Positions 667-58,481 of a stretch of 64,000 nucleotides of DNA are shown piece after piece. The notes beneath the pieces were generated by a model, which did no database searches, was not told the origin of the DNA, and saw only the letters and a list, made by a program, of their open reading frames with translations. The translations under genes and the position numbers were made by a program. The number at the start of each line of letters is the position of its first letter. Within the stretch, counting starts at the first letter, position 1. The DNA is from Escherichia phage MET-P1-301, in sequence record PV700625; one strand, 5' to 3'.

Positions 667-2872
667 CTTGCAGTGCAGACTTACCTACACCGATGCGACT
701 GTTAAGGTAGTACATGGTTTTCATACCTACCGAGTTAGCGTAAATCATGTATTTTAAAGCTTGAGCCAATGATACCTTCTTAGCTTTTGCGTAGTCAACA
801 TAGAAATCTGAAGAGATAGCTTGACCAGTGAACTTTTGGACAATTGCATAACAATCAATCAGGTCAAAGGTGTCAATATCCCAAGCAATTTCATAGACAT
901 ACTTCAACTCTTCATAATCTGGAACAATAAACAGTACGTTACCAGTTGCAGACTTTTTAGTTAAAATAAAGTCACGAATTGGGTACAAGCCATTTGTCGT
1001 ATTAGTTGCTAGTGAAGAACTCTCATTAGGCATATAAGCCTCAAGTACAGAGTTTCGGATGCCACCATTTTCTTTGATACGTTGTGCTAAGTCATCCCAA
1101 TCATATCTTAGTTTTGCATCATGCTTCTCATCAATCTTCTTGTTAGCTGTCTTCGGAGGAACCCATCCTTCAGGGTACTTAGTGAACTTCATGTATTCAG
1201 GTACACCACGCTCTTTAGCAAGTCTTAGAGAAGCTTCATGCAGATAGTAAGAGTGCATCTCTGCAAGTTCGTGAAGCTTTGTCTTACCAGCCCTTGAAGA
1301 GTAGTTCACGTAGTTCTTCGCAAGGTAATGAGCCACATTTGTAAGGCCAATGCCAACAGAGCGACGCTTCTGAACATGGTTACGCATCGACGGATACGGA
1401 TAATCCATAAGGTCAATAACGGAGTCAACCATTGCAAGAGCATAATAAGCAACGTCAGCGTATTCATCTTCTGAAATTCTCCCTGCAACCAAACTAGCTA
1501 GGAAGCAAAGAGCTACCTCACCATCCTCCTTCACAGCATCGTCTCTGTAAAGGTCTGTCTCTTTCTCAAAGCCGTACACTGGCAACACAATTTCCATGCA
1601 AAGATTTGACATCTTCAAAGGCTCTTTAAATGGTGTATGTGTGTTTGCATTGTTTGTGAAGAATGGGTACACACGACCTGTTGCATAACGCTGCTGGATA
1701 AACAGTTTAGCAATTTCACGAGCCTTTACTCGTCTGTGCTTAACACCTGCATGTACTGCGTGACCAACTGCCATAGCAAACTCATCAGCAGATGCGGTGT
1801 AGAACATATCATAAAGTTTTGGTGCATCTTTGTAAGAGAATAGCAACCAATCTGTATCATACTGAACACACTGCCAGAAATAATCATTTGTACCAAATGA
1901 GTAGTCCATCTCGTTAATACGTTTAGAAGGAACCGTTGTAGGGTGCTTCAAACGTAGTAAATCTTCAATCTGCGGGTCTAGAGCGGTGTAGAAGTTGTTA
2001 GCTGAACCACCACGACTCTTCTGTTTATTTGCCTCTACAGATGAACGTACAAGCTTGTAATAAGGTAGTTTACCCATGTGTTCGATAGTGTTTTGACGGA
2101 TACCATCACCAATAGTACGGGTCTCCATCAGCATACCAATACCAGCTTGCTTCGTAGTCATATCATAAGCAACCTTTGCAGCAATACCAAGTGACTCAGC
2201 AGTATCATTTGCCTTAATCAAACAGCATGACGCATAACCTGACTTAGTAGCACGTAAACCATTCAGATAAGGTGTAGGAGCATTAATCTTCAGGTCAGAT
2301 AGGTAAGTGTACAGCTTAATAACATCTTGCAGTCTACGGTGCTTTGGTTGCTTCTCAAAGGCTTTCATAGCCATACCCATAAACATAAATTGTGGTGACT
2401 CAAAAAGTCTTCCCGTTTTAATATCACGGATACCATATTTATCTCTGAACTGTTTCAACACTGCATAGCCGTAAGAGATATCTTTTGAGTGCACGATGTA
2501 GCCTTGCAGGTATTCAAGTTCTTCCTGTGAATAATCCATCTTCTCCCAAAGTCCTGCTCTCTCCATATTTTTAACGAAGGTAACCAGCGTAGGAACCTTA
2601 GTAAAGCCTCCAAAGGCTTCTTTGTAGATAATACCCAGAAGTAGCCGTCCAGCCATGTCTGAGTACTCTTGAGTTTGTTTATCAACACAAACATCAATCA
2701 TAGCTTGGTGCATCTCTTTTGTAGTGCAACCTTCATAGACACGCTTCATAGCTTCCATAGTGACTTCTGACCAGATAATTCCACGCTTATCTGCCCATGA
2801 TGCCCACTTATTCAGTCTTTCTGGGTCAAAGCTTACTACTGTACCGTTTGATTTTTTAATTGTCTTAATCAT
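638..2872 (-). CDS. nrdA: ribonucleotide reductase class Ia alpha subunit
   Basis: Intact 744-aa ORF; C-terminal cysteine pair (...YCEGCGV) typical of class I RNR large subunit; adjacent to nrdB. Confidence 0.9.
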   Translation of the reverse strand: MIKTIKKSNGTVVSFDPERLNKWASWADKRGIIWSEVTMEAMKRVYEGCTTKEMHQAMIDVCVDKQTQEYSDMAGRLLLGIIYKEAFGGFTKVPTLVTFVKNMERAGLWEKMDYSQEELEYLQGYIVHSKDISYGYAVLKQFRDKYGIRDIKTGRLFESPQFMFMGMAMKAFEKQPKHRRLQDVIKLYTYLSDLKINAPTPYLNGLRATKSGYASCCLIKANDTAESLGIAAKVAYDMTTKQAGIGMLMETRTIGDGIRQNTIEHMGKLPYYKLVRSSVEANKQKSRGGSANNFYTALDPQIEDLLRLKHPTTVPSKRINEMDYSFGTNDYFWQCVQYDTDWLLFSYKDAPKLYDMFYTASADEFAMAVGHAVHAGVKHRRVKAREIAKLFIQQRYATGRVYPFFTNNANTHTPFKEPLKMSNLCMEIVLPVYGFEKETDLYRDDAVKEDGEVALCFLASLVAGRISEDEYADVAYYALAMVDSVIDLMDYPYPSMRNHVQKRRSVGIGLTNVAHYLAKNYVNYSSRAGKTKLHELAEMHSYYLHEASLRLAKERGVPEYMKFTKYPEGWVPPKTANKKIDEKHDAKLRYDWDDLAQRIKENGGIRNSVLEAYMPNESSSLATNTTNGLYPIRDFILTKKSATGNVLFIVPDYEELKYVYEIAWDIDTFDLIDCYAIVQKFTGQAISSDFYVDYAKAKKVSLAQALKYMIYANSVGMKTMYYLNSRIGVGKSALQDAYCEGCGV

Positions 2873-46606: not shown

Positions 46607-46682
46607 TGGAGAATCCGAAGGGACTCGAACCCTTATAAACCTGTTTTGCAGACAGGCACATAGCCATTTCTGTCACGGATTC
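46607..46682 (-). tRNA. tRNA-Cys (anticodon GCA)
   Basis: Cloverleaf: acceptor GAATCCG/CGGATTC, anticodon stem CCTGT/ACAGG, loop CTGCAAA, T-loop TTCGAGT, CCA encoded. Confidence 0.85.
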
Positions 46683-46686
46683 AAAT

Positions 46687-46779
46687 TGGAGGAAGATACC
46701 AGACTTGAACTGGTACACCGATTTCTCAGCTACTGGCAGTTTAGCAAACTGCTCCCTTACCTTTTAGGGTTAATCTTCC
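46687..46779 (-). tRNA. tRNA-Ser (anticodon GCT)
   Basis: Acceptor GGAAGAT/ATCTTCC, anticodon stem GCAGT/ACTGC, loop TTGCTAA, long variable arm. Confidence 0.8.
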
Positions 46780-46780
46780 A

Positions 46781-47514
46781 TTATTTCTGTAATGCGTTCT
46801 TCATTTCTGGTGTTGCAATAGTGTCAATTACACCAGTTTTACAAGCATCATCAAACCAGTCTGGTAAGATACCTGCTAAGAACCCATTGATATTCGTTTT
46901 AAGGTACTCTGCAATAAGGGCAGCTTCTTCTTCAATCATCTGCACAACTTCATCTGCATAAGCTGTAATCTTCGAGATACCTTCATTAATCTTACTAACA
47001 GCTTGGTTAGCTAAATCAGAAATAGTATCAAGACCTTTGTCAATAGCGTCTTGTAAGTCACTTAATACATCATTAACACCGTCTAGTGCACTGTTAATCG
47101 TATCAATAGCTTTTTGACCATACTCTGTAGCAACACCCATAATACCACTAAATGGTGTACAGCCAACTTGTTCACCTGCTGCACCCATAACATTAGAATA
47201 ACCTTTTGCTACCTGCATACGTGATGAAAACTCATCAATGGACTTTTGACCGTAATCTGTCAGTGTTTTGGTAGTTGATGTAGTGCTTGTCAGACTCGTG
47301 GTAAAGCTGTTAAGCAGAACTGTTGTAAGTCCAGCAGCAACAAGCTTATCTTTTACTGTAGGGTCTGATACAGAACTAATAGAGCTTACAAGTGATGTGG
47401 AGGCAGCTACGGTTCCACCGAGAACTGCTGCACCAGTAATAAGGGGTTAGAAAACCCTTTACCAGTTTTTAAGAGATTAAAAATCTCCTTACCTTGTTCT
47501 GTCATCTCTTTCAT
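46781..47514 (-). CDS. hypothetical Ala/Thr/Ser-rich protein (apparently frameshifted)
   Basis: ORF 46781-47218 continues upstream in-frame to about 47440 and links to ATG 47514 across one frame change. Confidence 0.4.
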
Positions 47515-47530
47515 TAAGCACCTTTGAAAT

Positions 47531-47607
47531 TGGTAGTCCAGTGGGATTTGAACCCTCTTCTCATGTTTTTCAGACACGCGCTTTAACCATATAAGCTACT
47601 TGGACTA
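47531..47607 (-). tRNA. tRNA-Phe (anticodon GAA)
   Basis: Acceptor TAGTCCA/TGGACTA, anticodon stem CGTGT/ACATG, loop CTGAAAA; D-arm register uncertain. Confidence 0.65.
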
Positions 47608-47612
47608 TAAAT

Positions 47613-47688
47613 TGGGGTGACCTACGGGATTTGAACCCGTATAGACCATGTTCACAGCATGGGTCATTACCATTTATGATAAGGCCAC
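47613..47688 (-). tRNA. tRNA-His (anticodon GTG)
   Basis: Anticodon stem CCATG/CATGG, loop CTGTGAA, T-loop TTCAAAT, CCA encoded. Confidence 0.8.
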
Positions 47689-47719
47689 ATTTAAGGACTC
47701 TCGTAAGAATCCTTAGAAG

Positions 47720-47795
47720 TGGCAGCGGCATAAGGATTTGAACCTTAATAAGACAGCTTCAGAGACTGCTGCATTGCCAGTTATGCTATACCGCT
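47720..47795 (-). tRNA. tRNA-Gln (anticodon CTG)
   Basis: D-stem GCAT/ATGC, anticodon loop CTCTGAA with G-U closing pairs, T-arm TAAGG/CCTTA. Confidence 0.6.
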
Positions 47796-47800
47796 AAATT

Positions 47801-47879
47801 TGGTACTCCATATCGGATTCGAACCGATACATAACACAGATTTTAAGTCTGGCCTCTCTGCCAATTGGAGTAATGGAGC
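47801..47879 (-). tRNA. tRNA with anticodon TAA (Leu-type anticodon, short variable arm)
   Basis: Acceptor and T-arm (ATCGG-TTCGAAT-CCGAT) clear; anticodon loop CTTAAAA; variable region only about 7 nt. Confidence 0.5.
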
Positions 47880-47881
47880 AT

Positions 47882-47956
47882 TGGCGGGGATGTTGGAATT
47901 GAACCAACTTCTTCGATTTCAAAGACCGAGGTTTTAACCTTGTAAACTAATCCCCT
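47882..47956 (-). tRNA. tRNA-Gln (anticodon TTG)
   Basis: D-stem GTTT/AAAC, anticodon stem TCGGT/ATCGA, loop CTTTGAA, T-arm GTTGG/CCAAC. Confidence 0.7.
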
Positions 47957-47964
47957 TTAAATCT

Positions 47965-48522
47965 TTACTTTCTCAGTGGATGAATAAAGAATGCCAACAT
48001 AATTCTTTCCCTTGAGAATGCTCTTTCTTCTGGGACAACACTTTTTAGTTTCCATCCAATATAAATTCTCCAGTAAAATTGTTTACCAAAGATTTTAATT
48101 GATGGGATAAAAGCGAATAATCCCCAAGCATTACTGTTCCACATTAGGAGATAACCTGTCTGATTATCTTCAGGGTCAGAACTTACGTTGATATTACCTT
48201 TCCACTTAGTAACATCTTTTACATCTCTCCCTAATACATGGTAAGAGAAGTTATAAGCTTTGTTTCTCCAGAGCCATCCGACTCTTTGCATGTAGACACC
48301 TAGTTTACCAATCCATCTAATATTAGTCCATCTTTTAACGTGACCTTCATCACCATCAATTGGGTTGTCATAAGTTTCCATCCATCTGAACCCGAAAGGT
48401 AGATGTCCTTTCTTCTCACTGTAGAATGGAACTACGAAAGGTGCTAAGATAACTGCTAAGATTGCTGCAAATGGCTCTAACAAAGCTAAGAAAATCCATG
48501 AAGCATACTTCAAATATCTCAT
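47965..48522 (-). CDS. hypothetical membrane protein inside tRNA cluster
   Basis: 185 aa; N-terminal hydrophobic stretch WIFLALLEPFAAILAVILAPFVVPF. Confidence 0.5.
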   Translation of the reverse strand: MRYLKYASWIFLALLEPFAAILAVILAPFVVPFYSEKKGHLPFGFRWMETYDNPIDGDEGHVKRWTNIRWIGKLGVYMQRVGWLWRNKAYNFSYHVLGRDVKDVTKWKGNINVSSDPEDNQTGYLLMWNSNAWGLFAFIPSIKIFGKQFYWRIYIGWKLKSVVPEERAFSRERIMLAFFIHPLRK

Positions 48523-48541
48523 CTAAATAGCCTCTTTAAAT

Positions 48542-48617
48542 TGGCGCAGGATAAGGGATTCGAACCCCTATTAACAGCTTCGTAGACTGTTGCTCTATCC
48601 ATTTGAACTAATCCTGC
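48542..48617 (-). tRNA. tRNA-Arg (anticodon ACG)
   Basis: Acceptor GCAGGAT/ATCCTGC, anticodon stem ACAGT/GCTGT, loop CTACGAA. Confidence 0.8.
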
Positions 48618-48622
48618 AAAAT

Positions 48623-48700
48623 TGGTGTTCCAAGACGGATTCGAACCGTCACTAGTACAAGGTTTGAGCTTGCATCCTCTACCAATTGGGATACTGGAAC
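48623..48700 (-). tRNA. tRNA with anticodon CAA (Leu-type anticodon, short variable arm)
   Basis: T-arm GACGG-TTCGAAT-CCGTC, anticodon stem GCAAG/CTTGT, loop CTCAAAC; variable region about 6 nt. Confidence 0.5.
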
Positions 48701-48701
48701 A

Positions 48702-48776
48702 TGGTACTCACTAAAGGACTTGAACCTTTTTCTTCATCTTGTAAGGGTGATGTTTTACCATATAAACTAAGCGAGT
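48702..48776 (-). tRNA. tRNA-Val (anticodon TAC)
   Basis: D-stem GTTT/AAAC, anticodon loop CTTACAA, T-arm AAAGG-TTCAAGT-CCTTT. Confidence 0.75.
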
Positions 48777-48782
48777 GTGAAA

Positions 48783-55433: not shown

Positions 55434-55805
55434 ATGAAAGCTAAGAGTGCAAAAGACTTTTATTGCTTCCTACAATCCTATATCAATTCCGTGCAAAATG
55501 GTGAAAGGTACAACCTTAATGATGTTATCCCAACACCTTTGACATGGAGACTCAGTAAATGGCCTGAAGAAGATATTACACCAACAATCGAACAACGCAC
55601 CTACAAACCCGAAATCAATATTCCAGACTCTGAGAATCTATTATATCCAATGTTCCATATTGTTGGTCTTGGAAGATTCCTTATGGATATCCAGTATGTA
55701 ATTGGTAAAGGTTATAAGGTTAAAGGTATTGTTGTTGGTGATGTATCTCCGCATCACAAAGGTTATTTTAGACTAAACGCACATTTAGAGGCTAAAAAGA
55801 AATGA
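55434..55805 (+). CDS. hypothetical protein, paralogue of the N-terminal domain of the next gene
   Basis: Shared pattern KxF..F...YI..V..G.RY...........PLT...S.WPE.DI with 55802-56160. Confidence 0.45.
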   Translation: MKAKSAKDFYCFLQSYINSVQNGERYNLNDVIPTPLTWRLSKWPEEDITPTIEQRTYKPEINIPDSENLLYPMFHIVGLGRFLMDIQYVIGKGYKVKGIVVGDVSPHHKGYFRLNAHLEAKKK

Positions 55806-57186
55806 TTAAAGCAAAGACTTACCCAGACTTCAAAGAGTTTGTGAAGGGCTTCATTGCAAATGTAAAGGCTGGTAAGAGATATGATTTTAGAACATATCAA
55901 GAGGCTATTTTACCACTCACCTATAGTTCATATTGGCCTGAAGCTGATATTGCAGAAGTTGAGGAGTTTGACTACAAACCAGACTACAAAGTCCCATTTA
56001 GCGATGAGTTGCTTTACAGCGTTGGTGCTCAAATGAGAACTTCTGACTTCTTCATGGACTTACAATATGCAATTATCAATGGTAAAGACGTTGATACAGT
56101 TTATTGTGAATGGCTGGCAAGAGTTAAACCGTTCTCAATGTTGAATGCTAAGTTGAAGGATGCTATCAAGCCACCAGCAATCACTCAGCAACCAACCAAT
56201 CAAACAGTAAATGAAGGTGGTACACTTAACCTAAGCGTTATTGCAACTAATGCCACTGGATATCAATGGAAAAAGATGGTGAGGATATCACTAGCGCCAC
56301 ATCTGCAACCTACACAAAACAGTCTGTAGTACCTTCTGATGCAGGTTCATACACTTGCGTTGTATCTGGAGAGGCTGGAACAAGCGTTACCTCAGATTCG
56401 GCAACAGTTACTGTTAACGCACTACCTGTGATTACACAGCAACCTTCTAGCCAGACCATCAATGAGGGTGGAAACATCAGCTTGGAAGTGACTGCAACGG
56501 GTGCAACTGGTTACCAGTGGAAGAAAGATGGCTCTGACATTCCTTCGGCTACAGAGGCTACCTATAGCAAGTCTGGTGCTCTGCCAGCAGATGCAGGTTC
56601 ATACACTTGCGTCGTAACAGGTGCAGGTGGTTCTGTTACTTCTAGCCCTGCAACTGTCACGGTAAATGCTTTACCAGTTATTACCAAGCAGCCAACCAAT
56701 CAGGTAGTTAATGAGGGTAGCTCTTTGACACTGAGTGTTGAGGCGACAGGTGCGGAAGGTTACCAGTGGAAAAAGGACGATGTGAACATCCCTAGTGCAA
56801 CTGGTGCAACTTACACGAAAGCTAACGCAGTTCCTGACGATGCTGGTTCATATACCTGTGTAGTTACTGGTGCTGGTGGCACAACAGTCACATCTAATGC
56901 TGCAACGGTTACTGTGAATGCACTTCCTGTAATCACTCAACAGCCAACCAATCAAGAAATCACTGAAGGTGAGACCTTAACGCTGAATGTTGTGGCAACA
57001 GGTGCAACAGGCTATCAGTGGAAGAAGGGTGAGGAAAACATCCCAGACGCAACTACTGCAACTTACACCAAAGAAGGTGCAACCACTGCTGATTCAGGAA
57101 GCTACACTTGTGTAGTGACTGGCGCAGGTGGCTCTGTAACATCTAATGCGGCAACAGTTACAGTTAACCCAGCAGGGGAGGCATAA
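55802..57186 (+). CDS. Ig-like repeat protein (split by one frameshift)
   Basis: Four about 90-aa repeats (ALPVITQQPTNQ..NEG..L.L.V.ATGATGYQWKKDG..IPSAT.ATYTK...DAGSYTCVVTGAGGSVTS.ATVTVN); frame breaks at an A5 run near 56272. Confidence 0.6.
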
Positions 57187-57650
57187 TGCAACTCTCAAGA
57201 AAAGGTTTAGAAGCTATTAAGTTCTTTGAAGGTCTGAAGCTAGAGGCTTACGAAGATTCTGCTGGAATCCCAACAATTGGGTATGGGACTATCCGTATTG
57301 CTGGTAAGCCTGTTAAGATGGGTATGAAGATTACCGCTGAACAAGCTGAACAGTATCTTCTCGCAGATGTTGAAAAGTTCGTTGCAGCAGTGAACAAAGC
57401 CATCAAGGTTCCAACTTCTCAGAACGAGTTCGATGCACTTGTAAGTGAAACATACAACATTGGCATCACAGCCATGCAGGACTCTACATTTATCAAGCGT
57501 CACAATGCTGGTAATAAGGTAGGTTGTGCAGAAGCTATGCAGTGGTGGAACAAGGTTACAGTCAAAGGTAAGAAGGTCACTTCAAACGGCCTGAAAAACA
57601 GACGTAGAATGGAAGCTGACATTTATCTTGACAGTGTATATCCAAAGTAA
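57186..57650 (+). CDS. endolysin, lysozyme-like
   Basis: N-terminal LEAIKFFEGLKLEAYEDSAGIPTIGYGT resembles phage GH24-type lysozymes. Confidence 0.7.
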   Translation: MQLSRKGLEAIKFFEGLKLEAYEDSAGIPTIGYGTIRIAGKPVKMGMKITAEQAEQYLLADVEKFVAAVNKAIKVPTSQNEFDALVSETYNIGITAMQDSTFIKRHNAGNKVGCAEAMQWWNKVTVKGKKVTSNGLKNRRRMEADIYLDSVYPK

Positions 57651-57670
57651 TATCTTCATAGGCTCCTTCG

Positions 57671-57695
57671 GGAGCCTTTTTATTTTCTAAGGAGA
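57671..57695 (+). terminator. intrinsic terminator
   Basis: GGCTCC-TTCG-GGAGCC hairpin followed by TTTTTATTTT. Confidence 0.7.
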
Positions 57696-57700
57696 AAACT

Positions 57701-58099
57701 ATGAAACTTTGGGCTAGTGACTTTGGAACTTTTAAGTACACTCGTAATGGCTCGCTTGTACGCATTGTCGGGAACAATGTGGTTTCAAGAGGTGACAAGG
57801 TATATACACGGTTTACTGTAGAGCTTGTTGAACTGTCACCTATTGAGTCTGTGAACAATGGCCTGTTCAAGTTTGAGACTTACAATGTCAACGAACATGG
57901 ACAATTCAACCCTCTTGGTGAAAGTGGACTTGATATTATTTCAGAGCACCCATTGACAAAAGAGCAACTTGCAGGTTACTATAAAACTGTTCTGGAAAGG
58001 CAGTTAGCAACACATGAACAAGAAGCTAACTACCATTTACAGCATTGCGAAACTTTAAGAGCAAAAATCGAACAAGCAGAGAGAGGTTTTTATGAATAA
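57701..58099 (+). CDS. hypothetical protein
   Basis: 132-aa ORF with GGAG RBS. Confidence 0.45.
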   Translation: MKLWASDFGTFKYTRNGSLVRIVGNNVVSRGDKVYTRFTVELVELSPIESVNNGLFKFETYNVNEHGQFNPLGESGLDIISEHPLTKEQLAGYYKTVLERQLATHEQEANYHLQHCETLRAKIEQAERGFYE

Positions 58100-58481
58100 A
58101 GAGATTCAAGTAAAAGTTGACACTTTTGGACATGATGGTCGAGAAGATGCTGGACTTGCCGACGCAGTGATTTTTGAGTGTAATGGTAATATCAGTCTTC
58201 GCTTTACAGGCTCAGGTAGCACCCTTCGCAGAATGCGAGATGATGCAGATGGTTGCCCTGTATTTGGTTGGTATGACATGGAGTTCCCACTTTATGCAAT
58301 CCATTATCCAGATGGTGGGGAAGATTGGACGACTCAATCAATCCGTGATGAGCTTAACGGTATTCCAGTTGAGCAAGAAGAGCAAGAACCTGTTGAACTC
58401 ACCTTCACTTTTATCAAAGAAGAGAAAGTGGGTGACTTGTCAGTAACCGAAGCAATTCAAGTCTCACAGGTTATTCGTTAA
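58092..58481 (+). CDS. hypothetical protein
   Basis: 129-aa ORF. Confidence 0.45.
   Translation: MNKEIQVKVDTFGHDGREDAGLADAVIFECNGNISLRFTGSGSTLRRMRDDADGCPVFGWYDMEFPLYAIHYPDGGEDWTTQSIRDELNGIPVEQEEQEPVELTFTFIKEEKVGDLSVTEAIQVSQVIR

Follow-up and report, generated by a model that had tools for sequence, protein, structure and literature searches.

The gene at 55802-57186 of the window (i.e. the whole 64,000-nt stretch of record PV700625, from Escherichia phage MET-P1-301) is, judging from its sequence, a gene for a Hoc-like head-decoration protein, the predicted orthologue of Hex-Dec of Escherichia phage Bas63 and of gp20 of Shigella phage Sf14. Its reading frame is broken in the record, a break which is judged here to be non-biological, and it is preceded by a separate, stand-alone relative of the capsid-binding domain (CapBD) with which its product starts. 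Taken as a whole, this explanation (a decoration cassette, a frameshift artefact and an upstream paralogue) is considered very probable. The identity of the main gene has already been published for close relatives, with capsid structures from 2025 and virion proteomics, and nothing new follows from the main gene itself.

The window derives from the genome of a Felixounavirus (a Felix O1-type myophage), and the 1753-bp region of the two genes matched 218 phage records, nearly all Felixounavirus, with AN17P8 as the top match (97%). On the + strand, the order is a GC hairpin, the paralogue ORF, the Hex-Dec ORF, the lysozyme gene and a terminator-like hairpin (Table 1). The genes are tightly packed, the paralogue stop and the Hex-Dec start overlapping as ATGA, and the Hex-Dec stop and the endolysin start as TAATG. 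The position right before the lysozyme and outside the structural module, already pointed out in the initial annotation, stands: the Hex-Dec gene adjoins an endolysin gene with a clear Phage_lysozyme match, and a 154-aa lysozyme comes after Hex-Dec in 29 of 29 complete relatives. The hairpin upstream of the paralogue fails the T-run rule of a simple terminator scan; its sequence is among the rho-independent terminators of Felix O1 (Table 2: 'ggggctgatgcccctttaactatttat'), and a terminator is annotated at the equivalent place in wV8, where the position of the downstream hairpin carries a terminator annotation as well. A sigma-70 promoter scan gave fewer matches than shuffled controls, with nothing convincing 5' of the paralogue. 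The locus is most probably a decoration cassette of Felix O1 type, with paralogue, Hex-Dec and endolysin placed between two terminator-like hairpins.

Table 1. Features of the putative decoration cassette (positions in the window).
Feature	Position	Strand	Basis or remark
GC-rich hairpin, GGGGCTGATGCCCC then TTTAACTATTTAT	55398..55413	+	Directly 5' of the paralogue; read from the sequence
Stand-alone CapBD paralogue, 123 aa (phrog_4463; Felix O1 ORF81/gp37; SUSP1 agp126)	55434..55805	+	ORF list, homology
Predicted Hex-Dec capsid-binding domain (CapBD), aa 1-122	55802..56167	+	119/122 residues identical to 9NCF_S
Ig-like repeat 1 (I-set type), broken by a 1-nt deletion	56168..56418	+	Pfam, repeat alignment
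Frameshift site, A5 run	56270..56274	+	Closest relatives: A6 (AN17P8, L007) or A5 then GG
Ig-like repeat 2	56419..56670	+	Pfam, repeat alignment
Ig-like repeat 3, most divergent repeat relative to Bas63	56671..56922	+	Pfam, repeat and Bas63 alignment
Ig-like repeat 4, short C-terminal tail and stop codon	56923..57186	+	Pfam, repeat alignment
Endolysin, T4-lysozyme-like (Phage_lysozyme)	57186..57650	+	Pfam PF00959, E 7e-41
Intrinsic terminator-like hairpin AGGCTCC-TTCG-GGAGCCT then T-run, end of the three-gene unit	57660..57677	+	Terminator scan

With one base restored, the protein encoded by the main gene is 461 aa long and consists of a 122-aa N-terminal domain and four Ig-like repeats of 84-87 aa each, which are 62-70% identical to one another. 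This agrees with the layout proposed initially (an N-terminal domain of about 120 aa fused to four Ig-like repeats), and the Ig fold, for which a check had been advised, was confirmed by Pfam Ig_3, Ig_2 and I-set, each matching four stretches (E 4e-36 to 8e-30). The 252-bp period of the Ig repeats went unreported by Tandem Repeats Finder, the DNA identity of about 66-70% being under its threshold, and the repeat boundaries were taken from the protein sequence. Pfam holds no family for CapBD or for the paralogue. Once repaired, the window protein shares 91% identity with Bas63 Hex-Dec (9NCF_S) over 459 aa, and a phmmer search of the PDB with the AN17P8 orthologue gave 9ncf_S (E 5e-271) and 9c2d_S (E 1e-165), chains that carry the PDB titles 'Immunoglobulin-like domain protein' (9NCF chain S) and 'tail protein' (chain S of 9C2D and 9C3A, from Sf14). 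The two arginines that in Sf14 anchor the domain to the major capsid protein (Arg79 and Arg107) are both present in the window protein and are invariant in 31 relatives. Median pairwise dN/dS is 0.044 for CapBD and 0.12 for the first Ig repeat, and the Ig string is acidic (median pI about 4.3).

In both structurally characterised orthologues, the N-terminal domain has been modelled on the capsid by cryo-EM (Bas63 Hex-Dec, 9NCF, PMC12609058; Sf14 gp20, 9C2D, PMC11821841), where these 118-122 aa occupy, in monomeric form, the centres of the pentamer-proximal hexamers of a T=9 head (PMC12609058, PMC11821841). In Sf14 gp20, which was found in the virion by MS, the binding domain comprises the first 118 residues, with Arg79 and Arg107 forming salt bridges to Asp221 of the major capsid protein in pentamer-proximal hexamers only (PMC11821841). 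The binding domain of the Bas63 protein is followed by four predicted Ig domains that are unresolved in the map (PMC12609058), the C-terminal Ig domains of the orthologues being too flexible for resolution in cryo-EM. More than 10 kb separate the Bas63 Hex-Dec gene from the structural module, and members of the genus differ in how many Ig domains they have (PMC12609058). In Felix O1, the corresponding gp36 (31.6 kDa, labelled 'tail protein' and adjoining the lysin gp35) was detected in the virion by MS with 44% coverage (PMC3185647). The wV8 proteome paper makes no mention of the Hex-Dec or paralogue genes. The earlier assumption of an Ig-bearing phage surface protein is thus borne out by the orthologues, which are found in virions by MS (Felix O1 gp36, Sf14 gp20) and have their CapBD on the capsid.

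Most database records, on the other hand, make the product a tail protein ('putative tail protein', 'HK97 major tail subunit', 'major tail protein', and phrog_3995 is itself labelled 'tail protein'), and Ig domains are indeed found on tail tube proteins. This label derives from Ig-domain similarity alone, whereas the N-terminal domain of the orthologues occupies capsid hexamer centres and both 9C2D and 9NCF are capsid reconstructions. Tail protein identity is refuted by these solved structures and is left with practically no probability; given the capsid structures of the orthologues and Felix O1 gp36, the common database label is a mis-annotation that should be corrected to head decoration.

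As a head decoration, the protein would let its acidic Ig string project from the head, where it might serve weak Hoc-like adhesion or aggregation control and would be dispensable in the laboratory. Both structural papers reason from T4 Hoc when they propose such a part in adhesion and aggregation control (PMC12609058, PMC11821841). The SUSP1 orthologue, agp125, scored 'Not Fit' in a CRISPRi-ART screen, which is consistent with a dispensable accessory; the lysozyme scored 'Not Fit' as well, which means that the screen has false negatives.

The initial annotation took 55802-57186 to be one gene, and in this it missed a break in TGGAAAAAGATGG. The stretch is 1385 nt long and is split into an ORF at 55802-56329 (175 aa) and a second one at 56266-57186 in the -1 frame, so that the record as written holds no single uninterrupted reading frame for Hex-Dec (split at 56270-56274). 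The break amounts to a base missing from the run TGGAAAAAGATGG (56267-56279), where the closest relatives read TGGAAAAAAGATGG or TGGAAAAAGGATGG. It is far from the only one: with AN17P8 as reference and counting ORFs of at least 90 aa with a match in the window (n=68), 18 conserved ORFs are split between frames, one of them with three shifts, and the protein identity between window and AN17P8 is 97-100% on both sides of the shifts. Relative to AN17P8 the window carries 137 indels that are not divisible by three, mostly 1-nt deletions in A/T runs of 4-6; roughly 60 of the deletions in the window are 1-nt homopolymer deletions, the A5 site at 56270-56274 among them, and other homopolymer sites include 52213, 53171, 54149, 55357 and 57677. 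The density of homopolymer runs of at least 6 is 0.23 per kb in the window versus 0.74-1.47 in relatives, which makes them three to six times rarer, and comparison with four independent relatives recovered identical deletions. All 29 complete relatives (25 IMG/VR loci and four GenBank phages) have an intact Hex-Dec of 210/211, 294/298, 377 or 461 aa, corresponding to one to four Ig domains. A second frameshift-ridden record, MG969406 (GE_vB_B3), is broken at the identical site and has the same neighbour genes split. The frameshift in Ig repeat 1 is therefore attributed to a homopolymer under-call by the assembly: 18 conserved ORFs are split alike and the relatives are intact. Most probably, then, the protein of the real phage has its whole length of 461 aa. 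Being an assembly error, the split is no argument against membership of the Hex-Dec family. The record as a whole is flagged as unreliable for gene calls.

Two biological explanations of the break have to be weighed against this under-call. The mutation could be real and yield a truncated 'bald' Hex-Dec of 175 aa (CapBD, half of Ig1 and 17 out-of-frame residues), i.e. a natural Hoc-minus-like variant. Decoration does seem to be dispensable (as the 'Not Fit' score of SUSP1 agp125 suggests), the number of Ig domains ranges from 1 to 4 among relatives, and natural cases of truncation may exist, the Z31 record having a stop codon in Ig1. Real deletions at roughly 60 places would, however, together knock out 18 conserved genes, some of them large, essential-looking and hit by up to three shifts each, and no viable phage could carry all of these deletions. 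Moreover, the ORF 3' of the shift is fully open and 95% identical to relatives, which argues against decay. A real truncation is quite improbable on these grounds, and a genuine pseudogene was rejected on the evidence of the split ORFs, the indels and the intact relatives.

According to the other explanation, G_AAA_AAG would be the site of a programmed -1 ribosomal frameshift or of transcriptional slippage, giving CapBD-only products next to full, Ig-bearing ones. A -1 shift on AAA_AAG would exactly restore ...YQWKK/DGEDITS..., as in the other repeats; A_AAG is prone to shifting in E. coli, and in some phages Ig domains are appended to structural proteins by frameshifting. Against this, the shift is unneeded in the relatives (in frame in 29 out of 29), it would take place in the middle of an Ig domain, away from a domain boundary, and a similar 'shift' occurs in 17 other conserved ORFs of the window. 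The motif is also unconserved, with many relatives reading TGGAAGAAGGATGG, and this variability of the site among the 29 in-frame relatives rules out a programmed slippery site. The possibility was rejected and is held to be extremely remote.

The claim that 55434-55805 is a stand-alone paralogue of the N-terminal domain has held up well. By BLASTP the paralogue is 35% identical to CapBD over 121 aa (E 2e-18); it matches phrog_4463 with E 6e-80, each of the two proteins matches the PHROG of the other (phrog_4463 and phrog_3995; E 4e-15 and 8e-17), and a search of PDB sequences with the paralogue returned 9ncf_S at E 6e-12. Its AF2 model (pLDDT 76, pTM 0.77) matched only 9c2d_S and 9ncf_S in a Foldseek search of the PDB, over the whole domain and with TM 0.71-0.74, the values for 9c2d_S being 0.72/0.74, and in BFVD it matched ounavirus proteins only. 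The paralogue is intact in all 31 fetched relatives, where it measures 122-124 aa, carries no attached display domain and overlaps the Hex-Dec start by either 4 or 8 nt in every case. With a median pairwise dN/dS of 0.12, it is under purifying selection. It is a real gene and a true tandem paralogue of CapBD with the same predicted fold.

A tblastn search found the full-length paralogue in 232 of 252 phage records (~92%), from Escherichia, Salmonella, Shigella and Citrobacter phages (records of Felixounavirus, Mooglevirus and Suspvirus type), and in decayed form in about 19 (about 8%). In Z31 and vB_CECAV_041 all that remains of it is about 190 bp, without the start codon and with an internal deletion of roughly 226 bp; Hex-Dec is kept in both and is shortened in Z31 by its stop codon. 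A metagenomic lineage in which the paralogue copy is only 45% identical also has paralogue, Hex-Dec and lysozyme side by side, and more distant lineages of CapBD proteins have a single copy each. By these comparisons the paralogue is an old, separately conserved gene and not a swappable cassette. The residues that anchor CapBD to the capsid differ: the position of Arg79 is Gly in 31 of 31 paralogue copies, and at that of Arg107 the 31 close copies have Q, H, N or K and the divergent copy P0055 has Arg. As both anchoring arginines are replaced, the paralogue is not classed as a functional Hex-Dec. Its median pI is 8.6, compared to 5.45 for CapBD.

What the paralogue does can be approached through its relatives. 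Going by gene adjacency, it would be Felix O1 ORF 37, which, like ORF 36, is maximally expressed at 60 min, i.e. late (PMC3185647). The list of 17 virion proteins of Felix O1 does not include gp37; smaller proteins (9.7-13.7 kDa) were detected, and the list is thresholded at a coverage of at least 25% (PMC3185647). The SUSP1 copy, agp126, was 'Not Fit' in CRISPRi-ART, a screen with false negatives (the lysozyme being 'Not Fit' too). The paralogue is unmentioned in both cryo-EM papers (PMC12609058, PMC11821841) and has no entry in the Sf14 supplement, and neither study reports density on other hexamers (PMC12609058, PMC11821841). It is concluded that the paralogue is a conserved but dispensable accessory, and it is probably absent from the stable components of the virion. 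A non-structural accessory of decoration, or one that associates with the capsid transiently or weakly (e.g. by competing for hexamer-centre sites or modulating them), can be put forward tentatively. There is a smaller chance that it is a new regulator or partner of head decoration, for instance an Ig-less binder of hexamer centres empty of Hex-Dec (true 3-fold or prohead), or a competitor that sets Hex-Dec occupancy; in that case the arginines would have been replaced to suit another target geometry. More generally, a role as a Hex-Dec competitor, or one at the true 3-fold hexamers or on proheads, has a low probability.

A further possibility is that the paralogue is itself a second, Ig-less capsid decoration on hexamers unused by Hex-Dec (the 20 true 3-fold ones or those proximal to the portal), with a surface fitted to a different Asp221 geometry. 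The predicted fold shared with CapBD, the late transcript in Felix O1, the overlap with the Hex-Dec start codon and the more basic character of the paralogue would all suit such a role, as would the replacement of both arginines in every one of the 31 close copies, Asp221 of Sf14 being displaced in true 3-fold hexamers (PMC11821841). The lack of density on other hexamers in the two cryo-EM studies (PMC12609058, PMC11821841) counts against it, even if icosahedral averaging would be expected to smear a monomer on a 3-fold axis. So do the place of gp37 outside the 17 virion proteins of Felix O1, among which smaller proteins of 9.7-13.7 kDa were detected (PMC3185647), and the dispensability of the paralogue, which is decayed in some viable phages. 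A second decoration is therefore regarded as unlikely. If the paralogue does touch the capsid, it would offer an easy way into the question of how phages choose the hexamers to be decorated, and it could serve as a natural scaffold without Ig domains for display on capsids. Expectations remain modest, as it is dispensable and apparently not in virions.

The CapBD family is narrow: searched exhaustively by HMM, 1.84 billion representative proteins yielded only 13 clusters. The weakest HMM match, P0062 (1289 aa), looks spurious and was set aside. In these clusters CapBD is joined to I-set repeats, a single Big_2, another kind of Ig-like domain or, in P0059 (which is in the syntenic position adjoining the lysozyme), a Lys-rich tail. 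By these fusions the display part is exchangeable among relatives, and the modular exchange suggested initially is supported to that extent (one to four I-set domains, Big_2, Lys-rich tail). It is not supported for the upstream gene, which is an old, fixed paralogue that stays paired with Hex-Dec even at 45% identity. Foldseek searches of the PDB and BFVD gave no relatives of the CapBD or paralogue fold outside Ounavirinae, and consequently no link can be drawn to the binding domains of T4 Hoc or T5 pb10.

Among known systems, Hex-Dec of Bas63 (Escherichia phage JohannRWettstein) shares with the window protein its four Ig-like domains and its lysozyme-adjacent position outside the structural module, the differences being the clearly diverged Ig repeat 3 and the 1-nt homopolymer deletion in the window record. 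Four-Ig forms are not unique to Bas63, as they are also found in AN17P8, pinkbiff, DaR-2019b, L007 and L010 besides the window. Shigella phage Sf14 (Mooglevirus) gp20 (chain S of 9C2D/9C3A) shares the family, the architecture and both Arg79 and Arg107, but has three Ig domains and a lower identity to the window protein; Sf14-type phages also have the stand-alone paralogue (P0041, 77% identical).

T4 Hoc resembles the window protein in being a non-essential, hexamer-centre monomer with an acidic Ig string, for which adhesion or environment sensing has been proposed (PMC12609058). The Ig domains of Hoc are, however, N-terminal and its binding domain C-terminal, an order that is reversed here, and the Hoc binding domain is smaller and topologically distinct (PMC12609058). 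Searches of the PDB with CapBD, both by sequence and by fold, gave no Hoc match and returned only the two ounavirus structures. T4 is not known to have a stand-alone copy of its binding domain. The window protein thus works like T4 Hoc, without being a member of the Hoc family.

T5 pb10 (5LXK, 8ZVI) is likewise a hexamer-centre monomer with Ig, and its Ig region gives a weak sequence match (E 8e-12, 2e-11); it has one Ig domain, and its binding domain does not match CapBD in sequence or fold searches. As with Hoc, the window protein works in a similar way but falls outside the pb10 family. The BIG2 domain protein of Erwinia phage phiEa104 (E5AFW9) and the metagenomic P0057 and P0058, in contrast, have a homologous N-terminal CapBD (HMM E 8e-9, 3e-6; Foldseek prob 1.00). 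Proteins of this phiEa104 type differ from the window protein in carrying one Big_2 domain in place of I-set repeats, and the single short contig examined holds one CapBD gene.

Throughout the window, A/T homopolymers of 4-6 have pervasively lost single bases. These deletions split 18 of the 68 conserved ORFs, and every gene-level result drawn from this sequence should be checked for frameshift artefacts. One such case is the DUF2828/TROVE-like gene, which encodes 471 aa in relatives versus two ORFs of 244 and 227 aa in the window, because of a T6-to-T5 deletion at 53171. Similarly, an A6-to-A5 deletion at 55357 accounts for the changed C-terminus of the phrog_4034 product, encoded upstream of the stand-alone paralogue of the capsid-binding domain. 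In contrast to these homopolymer errors, the differences in the phrog_4348 gene appear to be real, making it an apparent local hotspot of variation: compared with close relatives it carries in-frame indels of 9 bp, located near 58100 and near 58371, and an N-terminal stretch of its product is highly diverged.

Features discussed, with their positions (window coordinates unless another phage is named)
Feature	Position	Strand	Remark
Example deletion sites	5191, 13207, 22341, 33025, 34131, 34739, 45036, 53171, 55357, 56275, 58857, 59411		
Cluster of 26 tRNA genes	46607-52147	-	
DUF2828/TROVE-like + vWA-like gene	52312-53726	-	'RNA-binding protein' in RefSeq for wV8
phrog_4034 gene	54797-55396		199 aa, versus 196 aa in relatives
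phrog_4348 gene	58092-58481		
Paralogue remnant, Shigella phage Z31 (L042)	2306-2497		
Paralogue remnant, Salmonella phage vB_CECAV_041 (L043)	2313-2497		

The tRNA cluster is a typical trait of Felix O1-like phages, and in the window it adjoins the DUF2828/TROVE-like gene; this pairing of a Ro60-like protein with a phage tRNA array may merit separate study.

The error signature of PV700625 is shared by another public record, that of Salmonella phage GE_vB_B3 (MG969406.1, L041). Its Hex-Dec gene (encoding the Hoc-like head decoration protein) is frameshifted at the same A-run as that of the window, its DUF2828 gene is present as two ORFs (243 and 227 aa), and its lysozyme gene is broken into two pieces. 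The length of this record (109 kb), together with the several copies of the paralogue/Hex-Dec region inside it, suggests that it is mis-assembled.

Of 252 related records, approximately 19 retain the stand-alone paralogue only as a decayed remnant, in which the start codon is gone and ~226 bp (equivalent to window 55506-55731) have been deleted internally. Both Z31 and vB_CECAV_041 have kept a one-Ig Hex-Dec gene, that of Z31 having a premature stop in the first Ig-like repeat, which leaves 134 aa.

In the comparison of PMC12609058, which was limited to ICTV species, four Ig domains are given for Bas63 alone. The 461-aa four-Ig Hex-Dec is found in several Felixounaviruses, the carriers besides the window being pinkbiff, AN17P8 and DaR-2019b (between them L001, L002 and L003), as well as two IMG/VR genomes (L007 and L010).
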